A stretch of 51,439 nucleotides of DNA from a virus. A program made the position numbers and the translations under genes. Below are positions 40,746 to 45,075 of this stretch, piece after piece; position 1 is the stretch's first letter, and every line of letters starts with the position of its first letter. The stretch lies in the IMG/VR virus record IMGVR_UViG_3300045988_173665, positions 1-51,439 of that record. One strand, given 5' to 3'. The notes below the pieces were generated by a model. It did not search any database. It saw nothing but the letters and a program-made list of their open reading frames with translations, and was not told the origin of the DNA.

Positions 40746-41159
40746 ATGATGAACTACAACAATATGTATGGTGGCTATCAACAACAGCCAATGTATCAAC
40801 AACCTAGTTATAACAATTATCAACAACAACAACCAGTCTCACAAGGAACAAAGTATGCGTTGTACTCTGAAGTAACAAGTATGGAAGATGCAAAAGCCTA
40901 CATTTTAGCACCTAATCAAAGTGCTTATTTAGAAGATAAAAACGCAAATATGCTTTATTACAAACGAATAAACAATCAAGGTCGTTATGAAATGGATGTA
41001 TACAAAAAAGTGGTTCAAGAAGAACCAAAAAATGAATACGTAAAAACAAGCGATTTTGAAATTTTAAAGCAAAGTGTTGATAATTTATCAAACATTATAA
41101 AAAAACTTGATAATCGCCAATTTTCAGGCTCAAAACAACAAAATAGAGGTAATCAATAA
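40746..41159 (+). CDS. Gln/Asn/Tyr-rich low-complexity protein
   Basis: N-terminus MMNYNNMYGGYQQQPMYQQPSYNNYQQQQP; RBS AAGAGG. Confidence 0.5.
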   Translation: MMNYNNMYGGYQQQPMYQQPSYNNYQQQQPVSQGTKYALYSEVTSMEDAKAYILAPNQSAYLEDKNANMLYYKRINNQGRYEMDVYKKVVQEEPKNEYVKTSDFEILKQSVDNLSNIIKKLDNRQFSGSKQQNRGNQ

Positions 41160-41392
41160 TGAATAATAACAACCCTATGCAACAAATGTTACAAATGTTA
41201 TCTATGAGTAATAACCCAAATCAAGTAGTTCAAATGCTTGCACAACAAAATCCTAACGTTCAAGCAATACTAAATCAAATGCAACAAAGTGGAATGACAC
41301 CACAACAATTTGCAATGCAATACGCAAGGCAAAACAACATTGATATAAACCAAGTTGCAAATGCTTTTAGAAAAATGGGTGGAAAATTTTAA
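41159..41392 (+). CDS. Gln/Asn/Met-rich small protein
   Basis: NNNNPMQQMLQMLSMSNNPNQ...; start overlaps the upstream stop (ATGA). Confidence 0.45.
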   Translation: MNNNNPMQQMLQMLSMSNNPNQVVQMLAQQNPNVQAILNQMQQSGMTPQQFAMQYARQNNIDINQVANAFRKMGGKF

Positions 41393-41426
41393 TTTTGGTA
41401 TAACTACTTTTTTGCTAATACCAAAA
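41393..41426. repeat. inverted repeat TTTTGGTAT-N16-ATACCAAAA
   Basis: 9-bp perfect arms directly after the stop at 41392, with no T-run after. Confidence 0.5.
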
Positions 41427-41523
41427 TCTTCAGTAATGATTGTCGACTAAATTATTGTTTATATTGGTGTTAAATTAAGAGTATTTATATATATGAACAT
41501 TTTACGAAAGGAGAAATATTTTA

Positions 41524-41976
41524 ATGTATGTAGAAGGTGATGTTCCATACGTTGGAACAACAAACGGAAATGCTAATTCTGGTTTCTTTGGTGGTGATGG
41601 CTGGTGGGCTATTATTTTATTTGCAATGATTTTTGGTTGGGGCAACAATGGTTGGGGCAACAACGGAAGTGGTGCAATGAATAACTATGTTTTAGGAAGT
41701 GATTTTGCTACAATTCAAAGACAATTAAGTGATGGTTTTGGTGATTTAACTTCTCAATCAAGATTTATTCAAAACGGCTTATGTGATGGTTTTTACTCTA
41801 TGAATACAAGCCTATTAAATGGCTTTAGTGGTGTTAACCAAAGCATTATGCAAAATGGTTATGAAACTAGAAACGCTATTCAAGGTGTATCAAGTCAATT
41901 AGCAGACTGCTTAAAGAAATTCTTTCTAGCCTTAAAGAATGTTTTTACACAAAAAACAGTAGGTAGTCTAGCGTAG
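41524..41976 (+). CDS. 5' exon of a Gly/Cys-rich repeat protein, with N-terminal transmembrane helix WWAIILFAMIFGW and GWGNNGWGNNG. The ORF as drawn reads through into the intron, and the true 5' splice site is unresolved (~41790-41950)
   Basis: The ORF lacks its C-terminus. A homologous continuation without a start codon lies at 43187..43558, beyond a homing-endonuclease ORF and a group I intron core. Confidence 0.5.
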   Translation: MYVEGDVPYVGTTNGNANSGFFGGDGWWAIILFAMIFGWGNNGWGNNGSGAMNNYVLGSDFATIQRQLSDGFGDLTSQSRFIQNGLCDGFYSMNTSLLNGFSGVNQSIMQNGYETRNAIQGVSSQLADCLKKFFLALKNVFTQKTVGSLA

Positions 41977-43558: not shown

Positions 43559-43672
43559 CTAATTAATTATTAGTATTTTAGGGAGATTAAAATATCCTAC
43601 TTTCAAAGGCATAGAGAATAATCTTCCTATGCCTTTTATTATCAAATTAAAATTATTAAAAAGGAGTTTAAA

Positions 43673-44122
43673 ATGGCTTTAATTTTAGGTTTAAAAAACA
43701 CAACTTCACAAACTGTTTTAACAAATGGTTTGATTAATTTAGGAACTACTTATAGAAAATATTGTAAAAGAACCCCACAATGTTTGCCTACTTTTGTAAG
43801 TTCAGGCACAAGTGTAACGCTAAATGGAACTGGTATATATCATATTACAGCAACATTAACAGGAAGTGGCACAGCGGCAGGTATACTAACTGCACAATTA
43901 TATGAGAATGGCGTAGCAATTCCAGGTGCTATTTCATCAAGTACTATTACAACAGCCGATACAGAAATAAGAGGCTTAACGATTGATTATTATATCAAAG
44001 TAGATAGTGAATGCATTTTGGGAACATGGGCTGTAAGTCCAAAAACTTTAACACTAGTAAATACAGGTGTTGAAGCAACATATACAAGTGTTGTTTTCAA
44101 TGTAGAAAAGGTGGTTGGCTAA
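43673..44122 (+). CDS. BclA C-terminal-domain-like (exosporium / TNF-C1q-like jelly-roll) protein without collagen repeats
   Basis: GIYHITATLTGSGTAAGILTAQLYENGVAIPGAISSS and the C-terminal TSVVFNVEKVVG parallel the B. anthracis BclA C-terminal domain (GFYKITVIANTATAS..GLTIQVNGVPVPGTGSS ... ASIIIEKVA); RBS AAAGGAG. Confidence 0.5.
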   Translation: MALILGLKNTTSQTVLTNGLINLGTTYRKYCKRTPQCLPTFVSSGTSVTLNGTGIYHITATLTGSGTAAGILTAQLYENGVAIPGAISSSTITTADTEIRGLTIDYYIKVDSECILGTWAVSPKTLTLVNTGVEATYTSVVFNVEKVVG

Positions 44123-44693
44123 TATGAGAACAAGAATGCGAGATATGTTAGAAAGAAGAACACGTAGAGATGGAAGAAACCCATATGGAAGTAGAGGTGG
44201 CTATGTTGTCAGTTCAAAATCACGTAGAGATAGATCAATGGGTTACGATTATGCTTATCCAGAACGAGATTATAGATATGATAGCAGATATGATGCCGAA
44301 CGATACTATACGCCATATGATATGGGTGGTGAATACACTAGACAACGTGGTCGATATATGGATGATTATGCAACCGAAGACTTAATGGGTGAATATCGTA
44401 AAGACTTACGTAAATGGGCTGATAAGTTAAAACGAAAAGATAGATTCAACATTCCAAAAGAAGAAATAATCGAGCAAGCAAAGAAAATGGGTGTATCTTT
44501 TAACAAATATGATGAAGAAGAATTTTACACAATTTATCTAATGCATATTAGTGATTATCCTGAAATTGCAAATGATTATTACACTTATGTTGCAATGGCT
44601 AAAAAGTGGTTGGAAGATGATGACATCGAAGTTAGCCCTAGTGAAAAAGTATGCATTTACATGTATGACATTGTAATGGGTGAAGAAGATTAA
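44115..44693 (+). CDS. Arg/Tyr/Asp-rich low-complexity protein
   Basis: ...RRTRRDGRNPYGSRGGY...RDYRYDSRYDAERYYTPYD...; overlaps the upstream stop. Confidence 0.45.
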   Translation: MANMRTRMRDMLERRTRRDGRNPYGSRGGYVVSSKSRRDRSMGYDYAYPERDYRYDSRYDAERYYTPYDMGGEYTRQRGRYMDDYATEDLMGEYRKDLRKWADKLKRKDRFNIPKEEIIEQAKKMGVSFNKYDEEEFYTIYLMHISDYPEIANDYYTYVAMAKKWLEDDDIEVSPSEKVCIYMYDIVMGEED

Positions 44694-44706
44694 AGAGGTG
44701 GTTTAA

Positions 44707-45075
44707 ATGGCTTACAAATACTTTAATAGGAATCCAAATGGGTATAAAATACCAGATTGTGTTATAAGAGCTATTTCAACGGCACTGAATATAAATTATT
44801 ATGATGTAGTTAAATTATTACATCAAAATGCAATACATTATAGATGTGATGATTTATGTGTGTGTTGTTATGAAAAATTGCTAGACATTGACTTGGAAAT
44901 ACCACACTACTATGGTAATAATCGAACAGTTGAAGAAATAGCCGATAAGTTTTGTAACGAAATTCTTTTATTAAGGATTGAGGGTCATTTAACTACAAGT
45001 GTAAAAGGAACGATTTACGATATTTGGGATTGTTCTAACGAGATTGTTACCGATTTTTGGGTAATAAAGTATTAA
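44707..45075 (+). CDS. Cys-rich hypothetical protein
   Basis: ORF with RBS AGAGGTGG. Confidence 0.4.
   Translation: MAYKYFNRNPNGYKIPDCVIRAISTALNINYYDVVKLLHQNAIHYRCDDLCVCCYEKLLDIDLEIPHYYGNNRTVEEIADKFCNEILLLRIEGHLTTSVKGTIYDIWDCSNEIVTDFWVIKY

Follow-up and report, generated by a model that had tools for sequence, protein, structure and literature searches.

The six consecutive protein genes at positions 40,746–45,075 of IMG/VR virus record IMGVR_UViG_3300045988_173665 are read here, tentatively and with a probability of about 35%, as a conserved accessory cassette, separately transcribed in siphophages and prophages of gut Bacillota; its products would build a membrane-tethered intracellular complex and would not be spore-coat proteins. 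The record was analysed over its whole length of 51,439 nucleotides (nt), referred to below as the window. An initial annotation had described the interval as a cluster of low-complexity, spore-surface-like genes next to a Spo0A-like gene, with unusual virion or lysis components as the alternative. Its gene coordinates and amino acid compositions are confirmed, as is the family of the neighbouring gene (PF08769), and a seventh open reading frame (ORF), encoded by an intron, lies within the same interval. The elements are as follows.

40746–41159, plus strand: QN1, 137 residues; prion-like N-terminus rich in Tyr, Gln and Asn, small conserved domain, coiled coil at the C-terminus
41159–41392, plus strand: QN2, 77 residues, Gln/Asn/Met-rich and helical, with repeated NPxxxQ motifs
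41524–43558, plus strand: gene of the Gly-rich membrane protein (Gly protein), spliced
41524–41911, plus strand: exon 1 of the Gly protein gene, encoding an acidic N-terminal tail, one hydrophobic helix (residues ~26–40), GWGNN repeats and helical repeats up to Cys129-Cys130
41912–43193, plus strand: predicted group I intron, 1,282 nt, between the exons of the Gly protein gene
42094–43071, plus strand: intron-encoded GIY-YIG homing endonuclease, I-TevI-like, 325 residues
43194–43558, plus strand: exon 2 of the Gly protein gene, encoding Cys131, a coiled coil, the Pro-rich motif RPTAKPAYITCSPF and a Cys/Gly tail
43673–44122, plus strand: predicted free-standing BclA_C/ExsF-like (TNF/C1q-type) jelly roll, 149 residues
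44124–44693, plus strand: RYD, 189 residues from ATG (192 residues from a TTG at 44115)
44707–45075, plus strand: predicted minimal papain-like (clan CA) cysteine peptidase-fold protein, 122 residues, with the candidate triad Cys18/His94/Asp105

The order QN1, QN2, Gly protein, jelly roll, RYD, peptidase is kept in ten divergent contigs (L008–L017), as seen when the window proteins are compared with these loci by tblastn. These contigs are phage-sized, with protein identities of 28–61% and GC contents of 26–43%. The genes flanking the cassette vary among loci, and in L008 they are inverted relative to it. A complete, rearranged set, comprising genes for a protein with a helix-turn-helix (HTH) like that of sigma factor region 4, the peptidase, QN1, QN2, the Gly protein, a jelly-roll-like protein and an RG/Y-rich protein, is present in two temperate elements. 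Dulem virus 33 (GC 50%) has it between amidase/holin genes and an integrase gene, and in a prophage of the cultured bacterium Vescimonas fastidiosa MM35 (GC 58%) it is found between an amidase gene and host genes. In the Clostridium perfringens phage HMD-PC1, the trio of QN1, QN2 and Gly protein genes is located among early genes. All six cassette proteins have many homologues, and because the gene order also recurs in divergent contigs, the cassette is more than a chance arrangement. The last three genes (jelly roll, RYD and peptidase) are tightly packed, with gaps of 2 nt and 13 nt, and this spacing, together with the strict synteny and a conserved regulator-like gene next door, argues that the products act together.

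The membrane-protein gene and its intron

The third gene had been described as encoding a Gly-rich membrane-anchored protein that ends in a Cys cluster. Such a protein is encoded, with 12% Gly, 11% Asn and 4% Cys as compared with the window proteome, but the chain ending in YGYGCGCGCNTGCGS exists only once a 1,282-nt intron has been removed, and it does not correspond to a continuous ORF. In the unspliced sequence, the ORF from 41524 meets a stop at 41976, and the Cys-rich C-terminus is located in another frame from ~43190. The gene is uninterrupted in the close relatives L003–L007, which are 53–54 kb contigs from public metagenomes (L004–L007 are described as near-identical to the window). 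Alignment of this DNA with the window places the junction between ...GCAGACTGCT and GCTGCAAAACG..., and the 5' splice site is therefore located after U41911 and the 3' splice site after G43193. The spliced product of 250 residues is 100% identical over its full length to P0121, the product of the intron-less alleles, and the exon sequence beside the insertion differs from the intron-less allele by synonymous changes only. Exons 1 and 2 also match consecutive halves of the family phrog_16490, at profile positions 17–139 and 140–280, respectively. The insertion falls exactly within the three invariant Cys codons (CCC) of the family.

The segment 41912–43193 is a group I intron, predicted from sequence and folding to be self-splicing. 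In the minimum-free-energy fold, P1 is formed by 41904–41913 and 41960–41969 and includes the wobble pair U41911·G41962, and P2 is a hairpin at 41970–41985 with a GUAA loop. The 3' core extends over approximately 43040–43160; the terminal G (G43193) and a P10 of four pairs, 43194–43197 with 41957–41960, can be read from the sequence. The Rfam model Intron_gpI (RF00028) matches 42884–43157 with 44.4 bits (E 1.1e-9), less than the gathering score of 50 since the core is interrupted by the ORF, and in the alignment the 5' part of the group I model is forced into the endonuclease ORF. The product of this ORF matches the homing endonuclease family phrog_314 (3.7e-11), the Pfam domain I-TevI_DNA-bd (PF20987; 27.0 bits, cut-off 27) and NUMOD1 (E 7e-4), and has the N-terminal motif YVYEW...FYVGKG at residues 4–22. 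The GIY-YIG domain model itself is matched only faintly (LEM-3_GIY-YIG, E 0.19). No homologue of the endonuclease is present in any related cassette locus, and neither the intron-bearing allele nor a relative of the endonuclease was found in IMG/VR.

When the region is compared with GenBank phages by megablast, the only match is in the intron core (~69 nt). The 3' core at 43121–43189 is 83–86% identical over 65–69 nt to Clostridioides phage CD1801 (L019, 1790–2575), where the matching segment is located in an unannotated gap between a "portal protein" gene and the next hypothetical gene. The similarity suggests that this gap holds a related, unannotated intron. In L008 (8380–9390), the Gly protein gene is interrupted at a different site, such that exon 1 ends in ...FSDGW just 5' of the membrane helix. 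The insertion of ~740 nt carries an ORF for an HNH endonuclease, and Rfam finds no intron at this position. A second HNH ORF in the same contig (11180–12052) is placed between the RYD and peptidase genes, and in Dulem virus 33 an HNH gene lies between the QN2 and Gly protein genes. The cassette looks like a hotspot for homing endonucleases. Since homing elements target the Gly protein gene at the CCC codons and, in L008, at a second site, this would be a gene that the phage must keep intact.

The Gly protein family is represented by at least 7,908 clusters at 90% identity, with members in phages of C. perfringens, in Dulem viruses and in Crassvirales. The CCC triplet, the PAY/Pro motif and the Cys/Gly tail are invariant, and the coiled coil is conserved as well (alignment A7). 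Each protein has a single hydrophobic helix; in 19 of 25 homologues the N-terminal tail is acidic and contains neither Lys nor Arg. A profile search of the family against the PDB returned generic coiled coils only. A reading of the protein as a holin of the T4 T type, or as spanin-like, was set aside in view of the acidic, Lys- and Arg-free tail. The repeat GWGNN-GWGNN, which directly follows the membrane helix, is encoded by a perfect tandem duplication of 15 nt at 41634–41663 (TGGTTGGGGCAACAA twice).

The soluble cassette proteins

The product of the gene at 43673–44122 had been likened to the C-terminal domain of BclA without the collagen repeats, and structure prediction upholds this assignment. 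The AlphaFold2 model is an all-beta sandwich with a predicted local distance difference test score (pLDDT) of 89.9 and a predicted template-modelling score (pTM) of 0.82. In a Foldseek search against the PDB, the BclA C-terminal domain ranks first (3twi_A, E 1.3e-10), followed by ExsF/ExsFA (9h3d) and F-BclA (9h38), and for the BclA/ExsF structures the E-values range from 1e-10 to 2e-7 and the template-modelling scores (TM-scores) from 0.64 to 0.73. Lower matches include EDA and other TNF ligands, C1q-like domains, Chlamydia Pgp3 and a phage spike knob (phi812 central spike). As the TM-scores to EDA, the TNF ligands and C1q equal those to BclA, the match applies at the level of fold or superfamily. 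The window protein scores 15.0 bits (E 0.023) with Pfam BclA_C (PF18573), under the cut-off of 38. Sub-threshold BclA_C matches are nonetheless consistent within the family, being found in 26 of 35 members (best E 9.7e-5), and BclA is the only protein that the family profile finds among all PDB sequences (E 0.2 and 0.58). The first beta-strand begins at residue 2, there are no collagen repeats and no N-terminal leader, and no NCBIfam match to the exosporium leader family is obtained with a library in which the leader model is present. From the model and the sequence signals, the jelly roll is concluded to be a distant relative within the BclA_C/TNF–C1q superfamily, and is free-standing like ExsF. 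The 363 homologues have ~146–149 residues and are all encoded on phage-sized metagenomic contigs; none has a precomputed Pfam domain, and a tblastn search of 50,697 GenBank phage records gave no match. A beta-rich protein of 119 residues in HMD-PC1 was tested as a further relative of the jelly roll, and is not one.

TNF-like knobs are found in receptor-binding proteins of phages, and with the phi812 spike knob among the Foldseek matches and the cassette located downstream of tail-fibre genes, the six products could be accessory parts of the virion, such as a knob for receptor binding or a decoration protein, along with its assembly factors. We regard this as the least probable of the explanations considered. 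Three membrane-protein genes and terminator-like hairpins lie between the cassette and the structural genes, one of the cassette's own products is a membrane protein, the jelly roll lacks an N-terminal segment for attachment, and the related trio in HMD-PC1 is located among early genes.

The protein encoded at 44707–45075, in which Cys makes up 5.7% of the residues (1.5% in the window proteome), had been taken for a Cys-rich protein of spore coat type. The AlphaFold model (pLDDT 91.8) has instead a papain-like peptidase fold with a Cys–His–Asp triad. There are 385 homologues of ~120 residues, never with extra domains, and the family has invariant Cys18, His94 and Asp105, in addition to Cys47, Cys54 and Cys109. 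The nearest folds are of the deubiquitinase, C39 and staphopain types rather than CHAP, and a Foldseek search with the model returns nothing significant. As for sequence profiles, there is no match to the named peptidase families C39, C71 (Pei), CHAP or NlpC/P60. The best weak matches are Pfam Peptidase_C23 (E 0.1) and a BtrH-related family of NCBIfam (E 0.22), and a PDB search with the family profile finds nothing relevant. The protein is probably a minimal clan CA cysteine peptidase, as predicted by the model, and not a coat protein similar to CdeC. Distant homologues labelled "putative peptidase" adjoin kinase and Ocr-like genes in Tsamsa-like Bacillus phages, and in Geobacillus phage GBK2 the homologue precedes recombination genes (RecT).

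A peptidase in this place could serve in lysis. No known endolysin family and no canonical holin family is recognised with Pfam, PHROGs or both among the ~66 window ORFs scanned, and the sole lysis-category match, a weak PHROG "endolysin" (E 3e-6), is inside the tape-measure protein. The cassette follows two membrane-protein genes, and its homologues are found just after lysis genes in Dulem virus 33, the Vescimonas prophage and the crAss-like cr116_1. In a lysis module, the missing cell-wall peptidase would be supplied by the papain-like protein, and the membrane protein, with its single pass, would act like a large holin or as a lysis regulator. Such a function is very unlikely, since phages that have a canonical amidase and holin carry the cassette too, and the peptidase has no wall-binding domain or evident signal peptide. 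Its nearest folds are not CHAP, and its homologues in the Bacillus and Geobacillus phages are among early genes. The acidic tail of the membrane protein further argues that the bulk of that protein is cytoplasmic, and no holin or muralytic domain is found in any cassette protein by Pfam, PHROGs or NCBIfam. Neither of the alternatives in the initial annotation, virion or lysis components, is thereby favoured.

The label "low-complexity" suits QN2 over its whole length, the first ~35 residues of QN1, the N-terminal half of RYD and, in the Gly protein, the Gly/Asn stretch that surrounds the membrane helix. It does not suit the jelly roll and the Cys-rich protein, which are compact folded domains. 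QN1 (13% Gln, 12% Asn and 11% Tyr) matches phrog_21718 (6e-7), and its architecture is kept in L001, L002, L008, L009, L012–L017 and L020. QN2 (21% Gln, 18% Asn and 13% Met) has a weak match to DUF2695 as its sole family match, and counterparts of 77–88 residues are found at the same position in L001, L002, L008, L013, L015–L017 and L020. No functional match is obtained for either protein in Pfam or PHROGs.

RYD contains 12% Arg, 12.5% Tyr and 11.5% Asp and has 315 representative homologues. Its start is likely the ATG at 44124, two bases after the preceding stop, from which the same 189-residue product is also called in relatives. The N-terminus is conserved (NRYLRDR...RDGRNPYGSRGGYV; alignment A6) and includes the motif ...YGSRGG. 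It is followed by a variable linker of low complexity, rich in Arg, Asp and Tyr, and by a helical C-terminal domain of ~100 residues. DUF7841 (PF25223) matches this C-terminal domain in 4 of 34 members (best 2.3e-12), the window copy gives no match at E-values up to 0.1, and a literature search for DUF7841 found nothing. No similarity between RYD and CotG/ExsB was found in Pfam, NCBIfam or PHROGs, and the PDB profile search with the family yielded only noise.

Possible functions and the genomic setting

The cassette is bordered by the following elements.

40003–40524, plus strand: remnant of the pre-cassette gene, for a membrane protein with a C-terminal HTH like sigma-70 region 4; stop at 40198–40200
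40532–40554, plus strand: terminator-like hairpin with a T-run, 5' of the cassette
45081–45108, plus strand: terminator-like hairpin at the 3' end of the cassette
45125–45153, plus strand: promoter-like site between the closing hairpin and the Spo0A_C gene
45191–45556, plus strand: Spo0A_C-only gene, 121 residues, outside the conserved cassette

By visual inspection, a hairpin and T-run are also found 5' of the cassette in L001, L008, L012, L013, L014 and L016, and in four loci (L008, L012, L015 and L016) the upstream terminator is followed by a TGnTAnAAT-like element and then GGTGT. To the eye, this element looks like a housekeeping extended -10 promoter. A leader of ~90–130 nt follows the element, corresponding to the region 40600–40745 of the window, where GTGGCAAG (~40612) and CTTGCCAC (~40716) could pair as a long-range stem around the leader. 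Judged from these sequences, the leader may be a conserved regulatory RNA.

The pre-cassette gene is intact in L004, which is 99% identical to the window and encodes a product of 149 residues (8552–9001). In the window, GAA is changed to TAA at 40198–40200, which truncates the ORF; this is either a real knock-out in the isolate or a sequencing error. The L004 product matches Sigma70_r4 weakly and below threshold (E 0.007; 16.3 bits, cut-off 24.1). In several loci the pre-cassette gene encodes a membrane protein, with AgrB matches in L012, L015 and L016 (best 2.8e-8) and a Sigma70_r4_2 match in L014.

Accessory cargo is usually found at the prophage end after the lysis genes or beside the integrase gene. 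The cassette occupies such positions in the two temperate elements, after the lysis genes at the prophage end or by the integrase gene, and appears to be its own transcription unit with an adjoining gene for a membrane-bound HTH protein. A neighbouring membrane protein has a weak SieB match, and the prion-like N-termini of QN1 are conserved. The cassette could accordingly be an exclusion or anti-phage defence module, with a membrane effector, the jelly roll as sensor, a protease, prion-like signal amplifiers and its own HTH regulator. We consider this unlikely. No match to a defence family was obtained, in searches that did not extend to the PADLOC library, and the same phage carries anti-defence genes (Tad2-like and Apyc1-like). 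In addition, because the predicted self-splicing intron preserves the Gly protein gene and no integrase is recognised in the window phage, it is suggested that this gene is used in the phage's own cycle.

The neighbouring Spo0A domain is confirmed by a match above cut-off to Pfam PF08769 (37.2 bits, cut-off 25; 3.1e-9). The protein aligns to positions 136–222 of the 262 in TIGR02875 and has no receiver domain. Such truncated spo0A genes, which encode the DNA-binding domain only, have already been described in gut phages of spore-formers (Schwartz et al. 2023, 10.1101/2023.01.19.524802). In the window and its relatives, the gene accompanies the cassette only in L003–L007, and it is absent within ±10 kb of the cassette in the ten divergent contigs.

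If the cassette were a set of spore genes, its products would be built into the coat or exosporium from the mother-cell cytoplasm, as an ExsF/BclA-like trimer with cross-linkable Tyr- and Cys-rich proteins and an anchor, acting together with the Spo0A_C protein. The best PDB matches of the jelly roll (BclA C-terminal domain, ExsF/ExsFA and F-BclA) and its weak but consistent BclA_C signals agree with this. The soluble proteins have, by eye, no evident signal peptide, like coat proteins, the residues Tyr, Cys and Arg are enriched, the Spo0A_C gene adjoins, and three of the cassette genes have relatives in phages that infect C. perfringens, a spore-former. Furthermore, the binding of a leader by ExsF and the cleavage of BclA (10.1101/2025.02.11.637640) have a parallel in the Pro-rich motif and the peptidase found here. 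Nevertheless, a spore-surface function is distinctly unlikely. Only one of the six proteins resembles any spore protein. The other five have no homology to spore proteins in Pfam, NCBIfam, PHROGs or the PDB, where no CotG/ExsB-like or CdeC-like family was found, and the composition that the initial annotation considered a hallmark of spore proteins is not evidence by itself. Even for the jelly roll, the TM-scores to TNF and C1q proteins are as high as to BclA, the score stays under the Pfam cut-off, and there is neither a collagen stalk nor an NCBIfam match to the exosporium leader. The membrane protein family reaches into Crassvirales, and the pairing with Spo0A_C, which had been taken to point to a spore-forming host, is seen only in near-identical relatives. 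The element upstream of the cassette resembles, again by eye, a housekeeping promoter, and the survey of sporulation genes in gut phages (10.1101/2023.01.19.524802) mentions neither "coat" nor "exosporium" nor "bclA".

In the reading that we prefer, a separately transcribed accessory cassette, the products would instead act at the cytoplasmic face of the membrane. This is the likeliest site because the soluble members have no N-terminal hydrophobic stretch resembling a signal, as judged by eye, and the N-terminal tail of the anchor is acidic and free of Lys and Arg. The Gly protein would serve as the anchor of the complex. In Bacillus exosporium assembly, the clefts of the ExsF trimer receive a Pro-rich exosporium leader, and the trimming of BclA precedes its attachment (10.1101/2025.02.11.637640). 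On the model of ExsF, the jelly roll, presumably trimeric like its structural relatives, might dock on a peptide of a partner, for which the RPxPxPAY(I/V)xxxP motif of the anchor and the N-terminus of RYD are candidates. The substrate of the peptidase would be one of the partners, possibly RYD, cut after the conserved Gly-Gly, and the prion-like QN1 and the Met/Gln-rich QN2 may function as scaffold or chaperone. The position of the cassette, at the prophage end after the lysis genes, between late and early genes, or among early genes, leads us to propose that it acts in vegetative infected or lysogenic cells, in host conversion, exclusion or takeover.

Several observations weigh against this reading. 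We infer complex formation, topology, proteolysis and the timing of expression alike, and the function is a prediction from sequence; no Pfam, NCBIfam or PHROGs family assigns a function to the cassette proteins. The charge bias around the membrane helix of the Gly protein is weak. Promoter- and terminator-like sites are no commoner in the scan than in shuffled sequence, and those of the cassette are for this reason to be regarded as consensus matches only. Spore proteins are the jelly roll's closest matches in structure and a Spo0A_C gene is present in the window phage, such that a sporulation-linked role is possible, and the failure to recognise an endolysin among the ~66 ORFs leaves room for a role of the peptidase in lysis.

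A more specific and highly speculative proposal, which we hold very improbable as a whole, is that the cassette encodes a phage-borne, two-part analogue of the docking between ExsF and its leader. The anchored coiled-coil stalk would present the RPxPxPAY(I/V)xxxP motif, either this motif or the N-terminus of RYD, once trimmed by the protease, would insert in the inter-subunit clefts of the jelly-roll trimer, and the Tyr-rich prion-like proteins would condense around the assembly. In spore-formers, the assembly might be located at the mother-cell face of the forespore membrane, and would change the spore surface or trap phage material there; in other hosts it would form at the cytoplasmic membrane.

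As for the remainder of the window, gene order and family matches identify it as a tailed phage of the siphovirus type, with ~29% GC and every gene on the plus strand. The main landmarks are listed below.

1–19 kb, plus strand: replication/modification block with a DnaD-like loader, a methyltransferase, RtcB and a Tad2-like gene
20408, plus strand: large terminase
22411, plus strand: portal
24972, plus strand: major capsid
29488, plus strand: tape measure
36084, plus strand: tail-fibre-like gene
38314 and 39218, plus strand: two membrane-protein genes 5' of the cassette interval
after the Spo0A_C gene (45191), plus strand: SbcC-like, RecT-like and Apyc1/metallo-hydrolase-like genes

An Rfam scan of the whole window at gathering thresholds returned nothing, and no tRNA genes were detected; the phage does carry a gene for an RtcB-type RNA ligase at 16030–17268 (phrog_1075, 1e-128). 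The gene at 38314–39174 encodes a four-helix membrane protein of 286 residues, with a weak match to the superinfection exclusion protein SieB (E 4e-4). It is preceded at 38274–38302 by a perfect TTGACA-17-TATAAT promoter match with an upstream TG and followed by a terminator at 39185–39212, and looks like a separate accessory unit. A Tad2-like domain of the anti-defence type is encoded at 2790–3407 (Pfam, 1.6e-8), and a hydrolase of the metallo-beta-lactamase fold at 48283–49023, of which the orthologues in sister contigs match Anti-Pycsar Apyc1. A small serine recombinase is encoded at 8780–9418 (Resolvase domain, 8.8e-28). The adjacent stretch of ~3.5 kb at 9400–13100 is AT-rich with few ORFs; its GC content falls to 0.21 at 11–12 kb, and several short tandem repeats are found at 11110–11652. 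This stretch could serve as an origin or in regulation, or could be invertible.

The host labels of metagenome-assembled genomes (MAGs) disagree for the phage-sized contigs, and include Anaeroplasmataceae, Christensenellaceae, Clostridia, Firmicutes and "Bacterium". One member of the 90%-identity cluster of the window peptidase (P0524; WP_279141094.1) bears the label Methanobrevibacter smithii both in RefSeq and in a MAG. The exact P0524 sequence is seen on 362 contigs, all phage-sized and the longest of 56.6 kb, which shows that the phage lineage is very common. An archaeal host was rejected, given that the phage has DnaD-like, sigma-70 region 4, Spo0A_C, RecT and beta-clamp-like genes and a capsid protein closest to those of Bacillota phages. 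Because all the contigs are phage-sized and the gene content is of the Bacillota type, the label is regarded as a binning artefact, in which a phage contig was probably binned with the archaeon.

Significance and comparison with known systems

Gut viromes contain very many members of the membrane protein family, to which, as to its partners, no function is assigned. What began as a "spore-like" impression is replaced by a defined syntenic cassette, two solid fold assignments and a precise intron, and cultured carriers of related genes are at hand in the Vescimonas fastidiosa MM35 prophage and in phages of C. perfringens, among them HMD-PC1 and CPD1. Should the link to spores prove true, no earlier example would be known of a phage with an exosporium-type protein that is structural and not regulatory; otherwise, the cassette still belongs to the widespread phage gene content that is unexplained. 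The cassette is thus a solid lead into the unexplained genes of gut phages, and not evidence that phages remodel spores.

A described counterpart of the whole cassette was not found, and its parts are compared here with known systems one by one. Similar to the truncated spo0A genes of gut phages, the 121-residue neighbour carries only the DNA-binding domain of Spo0A; in the window it lies outside the conserved cassette, to which it is linked only in the closest relatives.

The intron and its endonuclease share with phage group I introns of the T4 td/I-TevI type the Rfam core, the U·G wobble in P1 at the 5' splice site, the terminal G and P10, as well as an ORF whose product has NUMOD1 and a DNA-binding domain of the I-TevI type. 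Common to both, too, are an insertion site in the best-conserved codons of the host gene and synonymous differences in the flanking exons. Unlike those introns, the one in the window sits in a gene for an uncharacterised membrane protein, and not in a gene of DNA metabolism or a structural gene; its Rfam score (44.4) is below the gathering score (50), and in IMG/VR no intron-bearing allele or endonuclease relative was found. The intron and endonuclease are a further member of a familiar kind.

In clan CA, which includes the Josephin-type deubiquitinases/clippases, the C39 double-glycine domains, the staphopains and PeiR, a Cys-bearing helix is followed by a beta-sheet that bears the His and Asp residues. 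The predicted window fold has the same arrangement, with the invariant Cys18, His94 and Asp105 and a conserved upstream Asn. It differs in having only 122 residues and no accessory domain, in its three further invariant Cys residues (47, 54 and 109), and in the lack of a significant sequence match in Pfam, NCBIfam or the PDB. The family of the 122-residue protein is a predicted new, minimal family of clan CA peptidases.

As for the exosporium in Bacillus cereus-group bacteria, the all-beta jelly roll of ~140–150 residues is shared with the BclA C-terminal domain (PF18573) and with ExsF/ExsFA (BxpB). A patch of sequence is also shared with BclA, in which GFYKITV...NGVPVPG corresponds to GiYhIta...NG.a.pG in the phage protein. 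Sequence identity to BclA and ExsF is only 15–17%, under the Pfam gathering score, and the phage protein is without collagen repeats, exosporium leader or evident spore context and is encoded by uncultured phages only. With respect to its free-standing form it is alike to ExsF, rather than capping a collagen stalk. The predicted jelly roll is a new free-standing, phage-borne variant of the BclA_C/ExsF fold.

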